Assembly (NCBI GenBank): GCA_965113315.1
Contig: OZ220366.1
DNA from: Podarcis vaucheri
Taxonomy: Eukaryota
Reading direction: 5' to 3' (one strand)
DNA length: 64,000 nucleotides
The notes below the pieces were generated by a model, which saw nothing but the letters and a program-made list of their open reading frames with translations, had not been told where the DNA came from and searched no databases. Made by a program: the position numbers and the translations under genes. The number at the start of each line of letters is the position of its first letter. The stretch's first letter is position 1. Of this stretch, positions 7,790 to 58,662 are shown piece by piece.

Positions 7790-8240
7790 AATTAATGGAT
7801 AAAGATCGTAAACTGTCCTGCAAGGCTTAGCTATGTCACCCTCACCTTGGGAGAAGGCCTCCCAAACTCTTTGTTCTCACTCTTCCACCATGTGAACCCT
7901 ACCAGCAAGGAGTTCTAAGCCGGATGCTCCAAGCTTAGACTGTGTGGTTTAAGCAAGCCATCTTTGTGTTTCTGCACAAATAATTCAGAAACTCTTACCA
8001 TTTTGGAACCTAAGTTATACTGCCTGCCTTTTCTTGCTGCTGTATGGAAAAGCACATGAATATGACCTTTGACAAGTTTGTAACTAAACCATTTTTAACT
8101 TACCAAACGTATTGTCTCTTTATCTGCTAAGGAAAGTGGAGAACTTTGGAAGCAACTTAGAAAGGATATTTTAAAGGTCTAATGGACTATATTTCCAGGT
8201 TTTACTTTGCAGCATGTTTTGTGATTTTAAAACTCTGTTA
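7790..8240 (+). mobile_element. Unclassified interspersed repeat, copy A (possibly old LTR)
   Basis: Homologous to 26150-26560 (tgtatggaaaagcacatg, tgacctttg, tattttaaaggtctaa, tttactttgc). Orientation arbitrary. Confidence 0.65.
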
Positions 8241-9199
8241 GGGTTTTCTCACCAAAGAGTACTTGCCGCAAACCTGGCATTCAGGGAATTCCCTTTTATA
8301 TCCATACCATCTGTTTCTCCCTTTAACCAAATACAAATTTAAAACCAAGACCAGGGTTTGTCTATAACTGCACCAACCTGGAAAGTACGACTCTGCACAT
8401 TCAGAAAATATGATATTGAAAGAAAGCCTTATTATTTGCAAATCTAGAGCTCAGGTTTTTCAGGTTTGGAGACCCAGCCACTTGTGTGGACAGCCACATT
8501 TTGACAATTTATGGTGGCAGGATGAAAATCATTACTGATACTTCATATGAATAGCTTGCCCATATGGATTACTCCCTGAAAGGTTGCACCTCAAGCAACT
8601 ACCACACCACTGTGGCACATCTTGAAAAGATACATTTGAATGGGTATTGACATTGATTTGCACTCTTTTAACATATTCTTGTGACACTTTGGGGCCATAG
8701 GACATAAGGACAATAGTAAAGGAACCACTATATATATTCCTTTCTTCAGAGTTGGGAAAGAGTCATGGCCCAACCCAACTGCCTTTTGGTCTTATACCTA
8801 TATCAGCTAGGAGTGCAAATAGGCTTTTCTCCATGCCCACTCGTAATGTCTAGTTTGGTACTGAGCCAATGAGGTTTCACCTCTGCCCTTGTTGTGTCAC
8901 TGTGCCCAGAACCACAGGCTCTAGCCTGCTGCTGCTGCTTATATAGAGATTCATTTTATTTTCTGATGTAAGGTGATGCTGTCACTCAAATGCCTGCTTA
9001 AACACAAATGCATTGTCCTTCTGAATATCAAATTGGTACTGGGTTAGATGTGTGCATGTGTGTGCAATGACGTACATATCTTGTAACTTAAAATAATAAG
9101 GTATGAGTGCCAAATTTCAGGTCAAATAATGGGAGGGGAGGAAAGGCGTATACAGTGCAAGAATAATGGGAGTCTAGGGGGTTGCTGCAATTTCATTGA

Positions 9200-14118: not shown

Positions 14119-14837
14119 AGTTGCGGTGGACCACGTGGCCACCTCCTCCCCTCCGGAGGTTCCTGGCCATGTCATTCGCCAGCCGGCCAATCTGCTGGCT
14201 GGTGTGTGTGTGTGGCTGGGCCCCATTTAAACTGAGGCACGAGCCAGAGAGCTTCCTCTTGGCTCGCTTCCTCCCTCCCTCCCTATTTTTCAGATTTCGA
14301 CATTAGCCTTGCTATGGACCTTGGTTGGTCACCACTGAGGGGTCTGGTAGGAATTTTTCCACTTGGCAAATTGGCATGGGCCATTTGGTTTTCATCTACC
14401 TCGTATCAATTGCCACAACTTTGTAAGGTTTAGTGGTTAGGCATTGGTTGGTCATATGGGGAGGTGAGGTGTGACCATCACCTGCACCTCCAAGCTTAAG
14501 GGTATTTCCTTAAAGGAATCCAGGGGTGTGGATCTTGTCTGAAGCCCAGGGCAGGGCTAGGGCCATGCCATGACCCCGTCGGGAATCCAGGGGGAGAGCT
14601 CGAGTTGGTTTCCATTGACGGGGCTCCTCCTACTGGTGGTTGATCCTTTCTGGACTTTCTGCATGACGGGCAGGAGTCAGATACAGCTGGATCAATTCCA
14701 ATGCCTAAGCCAATACCGCTCATATTTTGTAACCAAGAAAGTTGTGGCCTAAATTTGCCCAATAACATTAACCTAATATCCGTGTCCTTGTGTCTTATTC
14801 ATCAACGAGGGGGTGGTCTCGGGGTCTCGACACACAA
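14119..14837 (+). mobile_element. Solo-LTR-like element family 1, copy 1
   Basis: CCAAT 14187, ATTTAAA 14225, variant polyA signal AAGAAA 14735; collinear similarity to the 50705-51400, 56121-56880 and 32026-32638 copies. Confidence 0.8.
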
Positions 14838-25312: not shown

Positions 25313-25318
25313 TTGATA

Positions 25319-25454
25319 CAGGCATAGGCAAACTTGGTCCTCCAGATGTTTTTGGCCTACAACTCTCATCATCCCTAGCTAACAGGACCAGTGGTCAGGG
25401 ATGATGGGAGTTGTAGTCACAAAACATCTGGAGGGCTGAGTTTGCCTATGCCTG
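25319..25454. mobile_element. Palindromic hAT-type MITE
   Basis: TIR CAGGCATAGGCAAACT / AGTTTGCCTATGCCTG with near-perfect internal palindrome. Confidence 0.85.
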
Positions 25455-26149
25455 TATAAGTATGTCTTCCATTGTATTTTAATGGTGGTTATATCTATAG
25501 GTTGTTCCGTTGTTGGAAGCAGATGAGATGATCATCAATAGGGTAATACTTTTCCTTTTGTATTTTAGCTTCTATTATTATTGGATACTCAAGTGAATCT
25601 GTATTTACATAGCAGGTTGATATATCCAGTTCCTCTAACAATATAAAAGGCAAAAGCAAAACTGGTAGATTAATACACAAAGGAAACATCTGCATACTTG
25701 GGAACAATTTTGAAAGTAAAAGATGATTACCACCAATGGTACAATTTAGAGAGATATGATCTAATTATCTTTTGAGAATCTTCATTAACGAGCAATCTTT
25801 GCCTACACACAGAAGCTTGGCAAGTACAATTATCTAAAAGGTTTGTTATGTTAATTTATTTTTTTGCATTTTGCAATGTGCAGCAGGGCACTCAAAAAGC
25901 TGAGCAGAATGTAATAGATGTTTAAGGGAAGAGTCACCAACTCCCCCACAAGCTACTATATTAAATCTATTCATCACATACTTTTGTCTACCTCCAATTT
26001 ACTCCACTCACTTCTTTCAGTCAGCCTTACAGTGAAATGCTTCTTCTACTCTGAGCACGAATATGCCATTTTCAAGTTGCTCTCCCCACCTTCCACACTG
26101 TACCTGTGGGAGAGCGAACCTCATATAACCAACATGCTCAAGTCTAATT

Positions 26150-29384: not shown

Positions 29385-29520
29385 CAGTCTTCCTCAACCT
29401 CGGCCCTCCAGATGTTTTGAGACTACAATTCCCATCATCCCAGACCACTGGTCCTGCTAGCTAGGGATCATGGGAGTTGTAGGCCAAAAACATCTGGAGG
29501 GTAGAGGTTGAGGAAGCCTG
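29385..29520. mobile_element. Palindromic hAT-type MITE
   Basis: CAGTCTTCCTCAACCTC / GAGGTTGAGGAAGCCTG; same core as 25319-25454. Confidence 0.85.
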
Positions 29521-32025: not shown

Positions 32026-32638
32026 TGCAGTGGGGCCAGGCAGAGATACAGCAAACACAAGGCGCACGTCTTGGGATTAAACAGACCACAACTTTATTGA
32101 TTACAGATGTCAGTAGGTTTTGGTGTAGGTATTGGGTGTGTATCCTGAATCATTTGGCCTTACTGCTGGTTGATAAATTGTCAGGGTCGACCCTGGATTA
32201 AGAATCTTTCCATGAAACACATAGAAGCATCCCCCAGAGGGTTACCATCGAAGGATGTGCTATGGCCTAGTCACCCTGGTTTGGGCAGCTGGACAGCAGC
32301 ACCTTACCCTGGACTCCTTTAACAGGATACCCCACTTCCTTTGAGATGTGTGTGGGGCTCCCAACCCCCTGCTCTGTCTTGACTAAGGGTCCAACCCAAT
32401 GCCTTATTTGCCCACAGGTTGTGACTATTGCTATGAGGTAGGCAAAAAACCCAGACAGCCCCAAATTGACTGGAGGGAAAATTATGACCTAGCCCTAAAT
32501 AATTGAGAATTGGCTGGCTCCAGGGCAGGCCCCAGCAACCCCCATGGCCAGTGGAAGAGGAAGTAACATCCTGTGTCAATCACACAGGCCACGAAAGGCC
32601 TTCCCAGCCTGGTGGTAAGCTGAACTGTGCCACAACCA
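32026..32638 (-). mobile_element. Solo-LTR-like element family 1, copy 4 (diverged)
   Basis: Minus strand starts TGGTTGTGG as in copy 3; AATAAAGTTGTGG at 32086-32098; shares GCCTACCTCATAGCAA, AGGCATTGG and GTTAAAGGA blocks. Confidence 0.75.
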
Positions 32639-42308: not shown

Positions 42309-42666
42309 CAGGGGTCGGCAACCTGTGACCCATCAGATGTTCCTGAACGATATACAGTACAGTGGTACCTCGGGTTAAGTACTTAATTCGTTCCGGAAGT
42401 CCGTTCATAACCTGAAACTGTTCTTAACCTGAAGCACCACTTTAGCTAATGGGGCCTCCTGCTGCTGCCGCACCGCTGGAACATGATTTCTGTTCTCATC
42501 TTGAAGCAAAGTTATTAACCCGAGGTAATATTTCTGGGTTAGCGGAGTCTGTAACCTGAAGCGTATGTAACCTGAAGCATATGTAACCCGAGGTACCACT
42601 GTATTCTATAGCCCTTGACACTGGTGGTGGTTAGAGCTGACCGGGGCTGCAGTCTAACAATATCTG
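42309..42666. mobile_element. Aged palindromic hAT MITE split by a Tigger-like MITE
   Basis: caggggtcggcaacctgtgacccatcagatgtt on the left and ggggctgcagtctaacaatatctg on the right of the insert. Confidence 0.55.
42360..42601. mobile_element. Tc1/mariner-pogo (Tigger-like) MITE
   Basis: TIR CAGTGGTACCTCGGGTTA / TAACCCGAGGTACCACTG, TA TSD. Confidence 0.93.
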
Positions 42667-49407: not shown

Positions 49408-50704
49408 GTGAATGAGAATCTTTAAACACAGGCCCTTGGTGCAGTGGTGCTATCAAGGCAGGACTTCCGGGCAGAAGTCCAGGATGCCCACTAAGCAGAA
49501 TGGGGTCGCCAAACACAGCAGGCTTGAATTACTTCATTCTTAAGTAAGCATAGTAACACACATTAAAAACTAAAGGGGAAGGGAGCAGGCATATGATAAT
49601 TAAGTCGAGAGTCTTAAATCACTCAATTGCCCCACTGGTCTCATTATAAGTCATGTTTTTATAGGGAGTAGCACCCCAATAAAAACTTGAGCAGCGTACT
49701 GTTAAGAGAACACTAAAACAGTTCTTTTTTTTAATCCTTGAAAAAGATTTTAAAACAACCAGATCTCCTTGCAGCTGAATAATTTCAAGGTTGCCAGGAA
49801 CAGTATATTTCTGCCACAAAATGCTTATTGTTGCTGTTCTTCTTCTTCGAACATATGGGTACCTGCTTTAAGTCTCGCACTTCCATTTTCTAATTAAAGC
49901 AGCATTTCTGTTTTATTAAGAGCTTCAAGAGTTTTGAGTTGTTCTCAAAGTACCTCAAAGGTTTGACCTGATGCTGAAGACTGCAGTTTGCTGCCTTGTG
50001 TTCTTTTAGAAAGAAGAGTAGGATAGAAATTTAAACAACAGTGAGGTGGACCTCAAAGATGCAAACACCCACATGTGCACATACTGCTTTAGGATGTGAC
50101 AAATATTTCAAAACAAGGCCTAGAAACTTCAACACATCTAAACTCAGTGAGAGTTCTTTATCAACATGCTTTGGATTCTCCTGTAGGAAAAAATAATACT
50201 TATTATTCAGCTGTGCTCACTAGATTAATGACAGTTGTATGGTTAACTAAAAATAGTTGGATAGCTTTAGACATGGGAGTTTTCCCCTAAGTAAATGTAC
50301 CATGATGGTACATACCAAATGCCACGTGTTAAAGAAACTCTCAAAAAGCAAATGCGGGAAAGAAAAGTAAGGATACAATTATAGACTTAAATAGGCTGCA
50401 GATTGATGTATTGATCCATACTGCTAGCCAATTTAAAATGCCATCCAGTGTAGGTACTTTAATGACAGGCAGATCCAGCTGCCAATTCATAGCTGCCTGG
50501 GCTGTGAACCACAGTACAGCTGAAAGGGAAAGCCTGAGCAGCACTTTTGCAAGGAGTGCCTTAAGTGTCACCTTTGTCAGTGCCTTCACATGAATATGTG
50601 AATGTGCAGGCTCTGGGAGAGGAGATTGCAGCTGATTTTCTCCTCATTGGTCGGTCTGCTGTTGTGCTGCTTGGGCTAAGCTATGGTTTGTTTTAGCGTG
50701 TCTT

Positions 50705-51400
50705 CTCTGCGCCACGCCCTAGGCTGACCAATCTGGTTAGCCAAGGGGCGTGGCGTGCTCTATTTAAGCAGCCCACAGGCGGGAAGTTGCCCCATTTTCT
50801 GGTTCCTGCTCCCGCAGTTCTCTCTCCCTCCCTCTCTCCCATTAGGCTCTTAATCCTTTGACCTTGCTATGGTCCTCGGTTGGTCGCCTGTTGAAGGGGC
50901 CTGGTAGAAATTTTTCCCCACTTGGCAAATTGGCATCAGCCATTTGGTTTTCCGCATACCTCGTAGCAAATCGTCACAACTTTGTAAGGTTTGGTGGTTA
51001 GGCATTGGAGTATTCGGTTGAAGGTAAGGAGAGGTAGTGGCCATCACATACCTCTCCTATTTCAAGGGTATTCCGTTAAAGGAATCCGGGGTGTGTGTGG
51101 GCCCATCCGAAGCCCAGGCGGGGGCTAGGGCCATGGAATGACCCCTATCGGTGACCCTGGGGGAGTTCCGGGTCGATGTGCATCAACAGGGCTCCCCCTA
51201 CTGGTGGTTAACGGTTCTGAAACTTCCTGTAGGCAGGCAGGAGTCAGATATAGTCGGTTCGGTTCCAGTGCCTAAGCCAATACCACTCACATTCTGTAAC
51301 CAATAAAGTTGTGGCCTTTTTTAGCCCATTGACCTAATATACTGTTGTCAAGTGTCATCCTTCCAACAAAGGGGAGGGTTCAGGGTCTTGCCACGCAACT
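50705..51400 (+). mobile_element. Solo-LTR-like element family 1, copy 2
   Basis: Inverted GC boxes GCCACGCCC 50711 / GGGCGTGGC 50746, CCAAT 50728, TATTTAA 50761, AATAAA 51302, ends CGCAACT. 5' boundary uncertain. Confidence 0.8.
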
Positions 51401-55519: not shown

Positions 55520-55664
55520 CATCTGGTCCAGCCTTCTGTTTCCCACAGTACAATAAATAGATGCCCCTGGGAAATCCACAAGCAGGGCTTAAGATACACA
55601 CCCAATGCCTACGCCAAAACATGCTAAACATCTGTATTTCATAAAGTTGTGGGCTGTTTAAATA

Positions 55665-55899
55665 CAGCGGTACCTTGGGTTACAAACACCTTGGGTTACA
55701 AACTCCGCTAACTCAGAAGTAGTACCTTGGGTTAAGAACTTTGCCCCAGGATAAGAACAGAAATTGCGCGCCCGCGGTGCGGCAGCAGCAGCAGCAACAG
55801 AAGGCCCCATAAGCTAAAGTGGTACCTCAGGTTAAGAACGGTTTCAGGTTAAGAACAGACCTCCGGAATGAATTAAGTTCGTAACCCGAGGTACCACTG
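55665..55899. mobile_element. Tc1/mariner-pogo (Tigger-like) MITE
   Basis: CAGCGGTACCTTGGGTTAC / GTAACCCGAGGTACCACTG, TA flanks; same family as 42360-42601 in the opposite orientation. Confidence 0.92.
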
Positions 55900-56120
55900 T
55901 AACAGTTGGTTGTGCTTTGGTTACTGCAACTTTAGCATGCCTTGGCTGCAACGCCCATGGCTTGACTGTGCCTGGACCCAAAACATGTCCAATGATGTCT
56001 GATGTTGTGTCACACCATGCCCACTTGTATGGATGAATTTTAGCCCAACATGGCAGTATATCAATAAAAAAAGTCACAGTTCCATACAGCAAAGACTCTC
56101 CTCCCTGGAAGAGAGGGGAG

Positions 56121-56880
56121 TGGTTGTGGGCGGGAGACCGAGCTCCGCCCCTGGTAGGCGGCATTAGCCCCCTCCCCTCCTACCTGGCTGGCGCCCACGC
56201 CTGTTGGGTTGGACTTCCCTTTACACGCCCACCGGAGGTGGCCAACCAGGTGCCTCCGGGGGGCGTGTGTAGCAGCTTAATGCTGTGGTGCCAGCTCCGC
56301 CTCCTCCTCATTCATCGTTATCCCTCAGCGAGTCACCCACCCTCCACTCCCATTTAGCTCAGGGTCTAGGTTTTTGGCCTTGCTATGGACCTTTGGTTGG
56401 TCACCCTGGTTGGCTGGGGGGCCTGGTAGGAATTTTTCCATTTGGCATTAGGCCTTTTGGTTTTTTCGCCTACCTCGTAGCAATCGTCACAACTTTTGTG
56501 GTATTGGTGGGTAGGTTAGGCATTGGATTCATGTGTTGTGCTGTGTCAAGGGCTAGGTGTGGCCATCGCCTATGCTATCTACCGTGGGTTATTCCGTTAA
56601 AGGAATCTGGCGATCGTGTATTCTGTCCGATGCCTGCTTGGCGGGAGGCCATGGCACAACCCTCGGTGACATCAGGGGGTGAGCCTATAGTTGGATGAGC
56701 ATCAACAGGCTCCACCTACTGTTGAATAAACCCACCACCTATAGTCATCCAATGCCTAAGCCAATACCTTTTCACTGCTGTAATCAATAAAGTTGTGGCC
56801 TTTTCTTGCCCATTAACCTTATATCACGTGTCCTTGTGTATTTATTTCACATAGCAGGGTCGGGCCCTCGATCCACAACA
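56121..56880 (+). mobile_element. Solo-LTR-like element family 1, copy 3 (complete)
   Basis: TG...CA termini (TGGTTGTGG / CCACAACA), 4-bp TSD GGAG at 56117-56120 and 56881-56884, AATAAA 56786. Confidence 0.85.
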
Positions 56881-58090: not shown

Positions 58091-58662
58091 CTGTATTTTT
58101 CGTCCCATAGGGTGCACCGCCCCATAGGACACACCTAGGTTTTTTGGGGGGGAAATAAAGAAAAATTTTTTTATTTCCCCCCCAGGTGCGGGGCTGGCGC
58201 GGGGGAAGCCCGAGCTTCCCCCGACCCCAGCCCCCAGAACAGCCTGCTATCCGCAAGCCTAGGGAGCCCGGACGAAGTCACGCCGCTCCCCAGGCTTGCG
58301 GAGAGGTGCGCGAAGCCCAGGCGCGCTCTTCAGCGCATCCCAGGCTTCGGAATGCAGGCAGCTCCGCGCAGCCGTCGGGAGCCCAGTGTGACTTCGCTCT
58401 GGATGGATGCGCGAAGCTGGGCGAAGCCCAGGGCTGCAGGCAGCTCTGCGCAGCCATCGGGAGCCCGGTGCGACTTCATGCCGGGCTCCCAAAGGCTGTG
58501 CAGAGCTTCCTGAAGCCTGGAGAACAAGAGGAGTCGGTGCGCACCGACCCCTCTCGCTCTTCAGGCTTCAGCGAAAGCCTGCATTTGCTCCATAGGACGC
58601 ACACACATTTCCCCTTCATTTTTGGAGGGGAAAAAGTGCATCCTATAGGGCGAAAAATACGG
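58091..58662. mobile_element. Tc1/mariner-pogo MITE with GC-rich internal repeats
   Basis: CTGTATTTTTCGTCCCATAGG / CCTATAGGGCGAAAAATACGG, TA TSD; internal repeated GGGAGCCC and GAAGCCCAGG units. Confidence 0.9.

Follow-up and report, generated by a model that had tools for sequence, protein, structure and literature searches.

ENEs carried by transposons have been reviewed for plants, fungi and slime mold, with stickleback retroviruses as the only animal case in the portions of these reviews available to us (PMC7583470, PMC13541005). According to the accessible part of the first, the ENE of KSHV PAN forms five triples, four consecutive triples support the helix in mutational work, and most of the stabilisation by TWIFB1 comes from its upper domain (PMC7583470). 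The available excerpt of the Evade study places the ENE of this element in the spacer between ORF and 3' LTR, where it raises transposition (PMC12501189). Solo AB units of Ngaro elements are described in the excerpts of PMC9210276 and PMC8547959, and the section at hand of PMC6681497 mentions an exclusive region of ~30 bp in the VIPER-derived SIRE. A literature search at the level of titles found no link of ENEs to Ngaro/DIRS or CR1 elements; the tables of the primary ENE surveys may list YR elements. Here we describe a hairpin of ENE-like anatomy in the 3' spacer of Ngaro elements from the lizard Podarcis vaucheri, starting from a window of 64,000 nucleotides (contig OZ220366.1 of assembly GCA_965113315.1), in which the preliminary description had seen an ENE-like motif conserved inside a family of solo LTRs.

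The repeats in question are A-spacer-B remnants of Ngaro tyrosine-recombinase (YR) retrotransposons with the layout A1-ORFs-B1-A2-spacer-B2, the class being assigned from repeat layout and ORF domains (Table 1). The copies in the window are solo A-spacer-B units, because the layout of the long element L031, the ORFs of its near-intact relative L221 and the flanks all match Ngaro; the combination of ORF set and split direct repeats likewise fits Ngaro as described in the parts of PMC9210276 and PMC8547959 that were available. A1/A2 and B1/B2 are 99-100% identical in L031, L034 and most of 30 complete elements, A1 lying partly or wholly outside some of the retrieved stretches. A domain search of L221 revealed four long ORFs with matches to RVT_1 (6e-14), Phage_integrase, corresponding to the YR (5e-6), and, weakly, zf-CCCH (0.002), while no rve integrase or methyltransferase match and no separate RNase H match was obtained for this element. 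ORF4 gave only a weak match to Lipase_GDSL (E 0.029, below cut-off) and is referred to as GDSL-like. A solo LTR of an LTR retrotransposon or ERV, as originally proposed, had to be rejected since the repeats are split, the recombinase is of the YR type and the flanks lack a 4-6 bp target duplication, the ends of copy 3 overlapping the target only in AA/CAA. Solo units were probably left by recombination between A1 and A2; a second B immediately 5' of the unit was present in 5 of the 30 loci taken from the search with copy 3. DNA searches returned 3,773 first-look candidates with copy 3 as query and 3,868 with copy 2.

Table 1. Features of the Ngaro units in the window and of the long reference element L031
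Feature	Position	Strand	Remarks
Copy 3 (young Ngaro family), solo A-spacer-B unit	56090..56878	+	corresponds to A2-spacer-B2 in L031
Copy 3 A repeat	56090..56335	+	likely promoter (putative role), TATA-like 56275-83; likely start near 3' end
Copy 3 unique spacer	56336..56513	+	between A2 and B2, once per full-length element
Enclosing helix P0	56380..56483	+	56380-87 pairs with 56476-83; predicted multibranch closure around hairpin
ENE-like hairpin, copy 3	56425..56474	+	lower stem 56425-30/56469-74, upper stem CCA/UGG, apical GGC/GCC
Copy 3 B repeat	56514..56878	+	conserved poly(A) hexamer 56786-91; second AATAAA 56725
Copy 1, older solo unit	14180..14837 (left end approximate)	+	hairpin 14346-14400; conserved hexamer site reads AAGAAA, at 14735
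Copy 2, older solo unit	50700..51400 (ends approximate)	+	hairpin 50903-50960, lower stem damaged; AATAAA 51302
Copy 4, oldest subfamily	32060..32540 (ends approximate)	-	degraded hairpin 32437-32489; AATAAA 32098
Fifth fragment, old-subfamily B-repeat piece without hairpin	55593..55661	+	85.5% to copy 4 over 69 nt
L031 long element, 5' part and B1			A1 830-1049, then internal region, B1 7950-8314
L031 3' part			A2 8310-8529; unique spacer 8530-8707; B2 8708-9072

Several further arrangements were encountered among these elements and in the window. Many young Ngaro families retain open ORF4 frames (2,124 candidates, with 60-100% identity among the 150 scored), which suggests a diverse and recent Ngaro expansion in this genome. 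Long copies of the copy 3 family (L031, L032, L033, L035) are 97-98% alike, with repeats 99-100% identical and ORFs fragmented, and have a 195-bp tandem duplication in ORF4 in common, suggesting that this family is non-autonomous and was moved in trans. L221:5869-7935 and L258 end in a tandem A-spacer-B-A-spacer-B array and thereby carry two hairpins ~810 nt apart. In L220:529-9329 (G000:C10), two 988-bp direct repeats, 100% identical and each with a Ngaro solo unit inside, enclose an insert that resembles a provirus in having terminal repeats of 481 bp and open frames similar to pol. In L017/L018 and L032/L033 (G000:C41), the same element together with the same downstream flank occurs at two places in opposite orientation, probably as a segmental duplication. 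In the window itself, an element at 55662-55901 adjoins the B fragment on its 3' side and has an inverted copy at 42358-42572, MITE-like inverted repeats lie at 25316-25457 and 29385-29520 (with an Rfam mir-5408 match far below gathering score), and a 34-nt palindrome lies in a GC-rich stretch at 58510-58571, inside a 209-codon open frame.

In copy 3, the motif is present exactly as first reported, comprising GGTAGG (56425-30), AA, T5 (56433-37) and CCA (56438-40) on the 5' side and TGG (56458-60), T6 (56461-66), CG and CCTACC (56469-74) on the 3' side. Folding of this hairpin yields -18.9 kcal/mol (z -2.76), a value equalled by 2 of 200 shuffled sequences. The other three copies are homologous to copy 3, and the statement that they share its layout was borne out only in part: copy 1 adopts the same fold, with a stability within the range of chance (z -1.19); in copy 4 the fold is related but degraded (z -0.39), and the claimed fold is absent from copy 2 (z +0.26). 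The distance from the motif to the poly(A) signal, proposed as ~310-350 nt, is 312 nt to the AATAAA at 56786 in copy 3 and ~340 nt in copies 2 and 4.

Genome-wide, four exact patterns of the motif yielded 716, 503, 143 and 18 matches, the sets overlapping, as compared to 0 for each reversed control; the motif is no chance match. To obtain loci independently of the motif, 150 of 2,124 candidates from a protein search with ORF4 were scored, and 36 loci were hand-picked for spread among the 150 matches listed (60-96% identity). A complete 3' end (B1-A2-spacer-B2) is kept in 30 of these 36 loci, all 30 of which carry the hairpin in the spacer, and the remaining six stop after B1, without a hairpin there. 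Likewise, B2 and motif were both present in 23 and both absent in 7 of the 30 top-scoring ORF4 loci, a sample overlapping the motif-blind set. The core was absent upstream of the spacer in all 30 complete elements examined. The hairpin occurs once per element, on the sense strand, ~310-380 nt 5' of the B2 hexamer; the distance from core end to hexamer is 351-380 nt in the 30 motif-blind elements. Among old loci ascertained through B, a recognisable 3' strand was left in only 12 of 30. L105:1500-1540 and L106:1500-1555 are isolated fragments that contain the motif but lack the flanks typical of Ngaro.

The part of the motif that is constant across families is AGG-AA-UUU...UUU-YG-CCU. Long U-tracts, initially taken for the family norm, turned out to be a family-specific extension: the 5' U run comprises three U's in 18, four in 4 and five in 8 of the 30 complete elements. 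It is likewise three U's long in the minimal family, and within the family of copy 3, 26 of 30 young copies have U5/U6. Around this core the stems vary while pairing is kept. All seven lower-stem pairs are intact in each of the 30 motif-blind elements, even though pair 6 is A-U in 22, G-U in 7 and G-C in 1, and pair 7 C-G in 19, U-G in 6 and U-A in 5, these switches of outer pairs being spread over several distinct clades in a tree of the coding region. Variable pairs in this set are filled by G-U in 13 cases and by A-C in none, which points to the sense strand. Among the first 30 of the 503 matches to the pattern that leaves the outer stem free, pair 4 is A-U in 25 and C-G in 5, and pair 5 is A-U in 24 and G-C in 6; in other families these inner pairs change on both sides (U-A, A-U and C-G at pair 4, G-C and A-U at pair 5). 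The upper stems differ among families yet pair, one closing position reading A-G or U-G in some of them, and AA-UUU and UUU-YG persist throughout. The stem-loop with a U-rich internal loop 5' of the poly(A) signal given in the preliminary description is thus supported as a sense-strand structure, with compensatory changes between families in its lower stem.

Statistical support for the pairing was sought in an alignment of 30 hand-picked sequences, about half of which came from motif-based searches. RNAalifold recovered the hairpin inside a larger multibranch fold; 94.7% of the named-pair cells are paired, compared with 25-47% in slid controls, and 18 both-side changes were counted versus 6.7 after shuffling (0/500). 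The enclosing helix P0 appears both in the minimum free energy fold of copy 3 and in the RNAalifold consensus of the 30 sequences, with 95% of cells paired and one both-side change only. A permutation among the five stem types seen twice or more gave p=0.067, and among 12 hand-picked stem types 45 of 48 pairs were formed as compared to 33.3 expected (0/50,000), some of these types being pattern-selected and kinship entering without a model or tree. Mean identity among nine representatives was 0.84 for the core, 0.82 for B1, 0.85 for the upstream spacer and 0.97 for the 30 nt downstream. Conservation of the core thus does not exceed that of its flanks, so that the core may form one arm within a larger structure bound by protein. 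Over window positions 56380-56513, conservation extends to the spacer as a whole, for which a multibranch structure is predicted, and the 30 nt 3' of the hairpin are 97% identical across families. Old copies behaved differently from these master lineages: RNAalifold on 29 sequences produced no consensus structure, and the named pairs were formed in 84.4% versus 83.1% after shuffling (21/500). Selection appears to act on active masters rather than on inserted copies. Taken together, these results identify the hairpin as a genuine RNA structure under selection.

A pattern scan of metagenome and viral contigs extended this picture to a distant element. It gave 70 metagenome and 5 viral matches, of which only the two metagenome contigs L185 and L206 extend both stems; the other 68 metagenome matches look like chance. 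None of the five viral matches extends both stems, the double-loop pattern had 0 matches in the viral contigs, and no relative of the YR piece of L206 was found there. L185 and L206 fold into two stacked loops (z -2.4 and -2.9), the upper one being a U5/U6-AU loop and the lower one the core known from the lizard, which here forms the lower half of a double ENE-like hairpin whose upper half bears the long U-tracts. Both hairpins lie 3' of a YR ORF and between repeats. The repeat that follows the YR gene recurs ~600 nt past the hairpin, for 26 nt before the contig end in L206 and for 133 nt in L185. The order is B1-A-hairpin-B2, like that of the lizard elements; A1 and the RT lie outside the contigs, so that the class is assigned by analogy. 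Upstream in L206 is a broken YR gene whose nearest named relatives are echinoderm proteins (71-72%), and the source of both contigs is probably a marine invertebrate. The hairpin is identical at 65 of 65 nt between L185 and L206, about one third of these positions being fixed by the search pattern, compared with 448 of 536 aligned positions downstream. When L206 is compared with the lizard units, the best nucleotide match is the motif.

To look for transcripts, four raw sequencing runs from a related organism were compared with L031:7600-8720, yielding 62-235 reads per run, mostly 90-99% alike. In the two stranded runs, reads over spacer and B are predominantly sense under the usual convention (spacer depth 8-27 versus 0-4.5), and reads joining spacer to B occurred in all four runs (5, 3, 3 and 5 reads). 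A Smart-seq3 5'-tag cluster of 5 reads, which may represent one molecule, lies at L031:8522, near the end of A (tag design according to the available text of bioRxiv 10.1101/817924). None of the four runs showed sense read-through of A2, and no poly(A) ends occurred among the loose ends listed for them, to which 42 further ends do not belong. Antisense reads over the A repeat (L031:8313-8520) share one flank in both stranded runs and probably derive from one expressed locus. The reads fit short sense RNAs from solo units, but also read-through from host genes.

On its anatomy the hairpin is ENE-like and qualifies as a candidate ENE. Our preferred reading, held with moderate confidence, is that the selected hairpin in the A2-B2 spacer is a variant ENE, a poly(A) clamp restricted to RNAs that have their 3' end in B2. 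Transcription would start near the end of A. Judging from the layout, RNAs cleaved at B1 would encode all ORFs and miss the hairpin, which would be present on full-length RNAs only upon read-through to B2; such RNAs would also hold the B1-A2 junction, which on a B2-ended RNA would be needed to rebuild the element ends. In the available section of PMC6681497, the model proposed for reverse transcription is noted to rely on annealing between repeats. Through U-A-U triples, the hairpin would bind the poly(A) tail that is added at B2, with three triples and A-minor contacts at the invariant AGG/CCU stem as the minimum and up to five triples in families like that of copy 3, and this clamping would likely shield the full-length template RNA from deadenylation. 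Loops of a length suited to about four to five such triples occur in the copy 3 family and in the upper domain of L185/L206. Short RNAs (~0.5 kb) from A2 or from solo units would carry the hairpin as well. A clamp of the ENE type is favoured because U's are kept on both strands, expansions add further U's and the flanks are G-C-rich, and also because the hairpin is placed as in Evade and has a double-loop relative. The ENE idea of the preliminary description gains from the double form of the same core in L185/L206; its element class and five to six U's as the conserved feature were not supported. Arguing against an ENE, the conserved loop provides only three U-U oppositions. As this is a small number of triples and an upper domain is missing in the lizard, an RT or packaging signal and a poly(A)-site enhancer remain candidates.

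The former, the principal alternative, would make the hairpin a replication signal, i.e. a site by which RT or a CCCH-finger Gag selects full-length RNA for packaging or priming and in which the 5x5 loop is read by protein. We regard this as unlikely, though not to be dismissed lightly: the hairpin is unique to template RNA, its core is invariant and asymmetric with fixed AA and YG and three U's only, its equally conserved flanks form the larger predicted multibranch fold, and ORF1 carries the weak CCCH finger. To our knowledge, no tRNA primer is known for Ngaro elements. Against it, the loop has expanded by additional U's in each strand (U3 to U5/U6), which is what a gain in triples would predict, and a second, long U-rich loop is stacked on the same core in L185/L206. 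Replication signal and poly(A) clamp are compatible with each other. Steering of poly(A)-site choice, with the spacer structure serving as an upstream enhancer that strengthens B2 as a 3' end relative to the identical B1, seems improbable to us. B1 and B2 are 99-100% identical, so that any distinguishing feature must lie outside them, and the U-rich spacer is the sole sequence unique to the upstream side of B2; yet the hairpin is 310-380 nt away from the hexamer, and it is pairing that has been kept rather than single-stranded U content. Finally, a chance fold passively inherited by related repeats, which could be read into the three of four window copies that fold no better than shuffles and into the old copies without consensus fold, is hardly credible given that compensatory and G-U changes arose repeatedly in master lineages, that the upper stem turned over with pairing kept, and that a distant element has the same core in the corresponding place and matches the lizard unit best, at the nucleotide level, in this motif.

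Two further links to known elements were considered. An ENE of the MALAT1 type was rejected, as no genomic A-rich tract lies within 400 nt downstream of copy 3 and no MALAT1/mascRNA match was obtained from Rfam; copies 1-3 contain no A4+ run downstream. The suggested comparison with Rfam gave no match at the motif in the window, and none in L185, L206, L322 or L280 either. The suggested link to a similar motif in CR1 3' UTRs was not confirmed, the exact pattern given for it having 0 matches in this genome and the motif being absent within 400 nt upstream of all 14 CR1-like 3' ends examined. In the part seen of a published CR1 alignment, the ORF2/3'-UTR boundary is trimmed and only the 3' half of the motif appears, in one entry. 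Among the first 30 of the 143 matches to the GAAGG/CCTTC pattern, 29 are of Ngaro type by their downstream flank; L374 looks unrelated.

If the clamp is real, an ENE-type element in an abundant, recently active vertebrate Ngaro would extend this kind of RNA protection to a new retroelement order, and would offer a handle on how Ngaro, with a poly(A) signal in both identical B repeats, favours its full-length template. The natural series U3/U3, U5/U6 and double loop would constitute a ready test of the minimal poly(A) clamp. Under the replication-signal alternative, too, the hairpin would represent a well-delimited RNA structure acting in cis, in a replication mechanism of which little is understood. 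A far broader proposition, which we consider rather doubtful, is that an ancient poly(A)-binding hairpin, carried by the read-through template only, is common to YR retrotransposons of animals ranging from marine invertebrates to lizards, that it protects the RNA and holds its 3' end for reverse transcription, and that thousands of solo units give rise to short, PAN-like stabilised ncRNAs.

The lizard hairpin was also compared with described systems, most of them available to us in part. With vertebrate Ngaro-like YR retrotransposons, the Podarcis elements have in common the A1-ORFs-B1-A2-B2 layout, RT, YR and a hydrolase-like ORF4 as well as solo AB units, and they differ in a unique, structured A2-B2 spacer of ~165-180 nt, which the accessible text of these descriptions does not mention for Ngaro (PMC9210276, PMC8547959). 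Like the ENEs of MALAT1 and NEAT1, the hairpin has a U-rich loop between G-C-closed stems, but its tracts are free of G/C interruptions and a poly(A) tail would be needed. Evade (ATCOPIA93) likewise carries its ENE in the spacer just 5' of the terminal repeat, with G-C pairs flanking the U loop; it is a Copia LTR element with four U-tracts and a function shown, whereas the lizard element has split direct repeats, two tracts and a candidate function (PMC12501189, excerpt). Double-domain ENEs of the TWIFB1 type share with it the U-rich internal loop between helices, the origin in transposon RNA and the proximity to the poly(A) site (PMC7583470, PMC13541005, in the parts available), but reside in plant and fungal hAT or LTR elements rather than in an animal YR retrotransposon. 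A double-domain ENE was rejected for the lizard copies, which have a single AA-U/U-YG loop, two loops occurring only in L185/L206. The lizard hairpin is thus single-domain and equals the lower domain only, in which 5' AA stands opposite 3' YG in place of the 3-4 nt bulge given for double-ENE lower domains in the part of PMC7583470 at hand. L185 and L206 come closer to the TWIFB1 type with two stacked loops and a long-U upper domain, the lower domain being atypical. As compared to the KSHV PAN ENE as portrayed in that part of PMC7583470, most lizard families have three U's, an extra AA on the 5' strand and 310-380 nt to the hexamer; both rely on a single U-rich loop, which in the copy 3 family would allow five triples.
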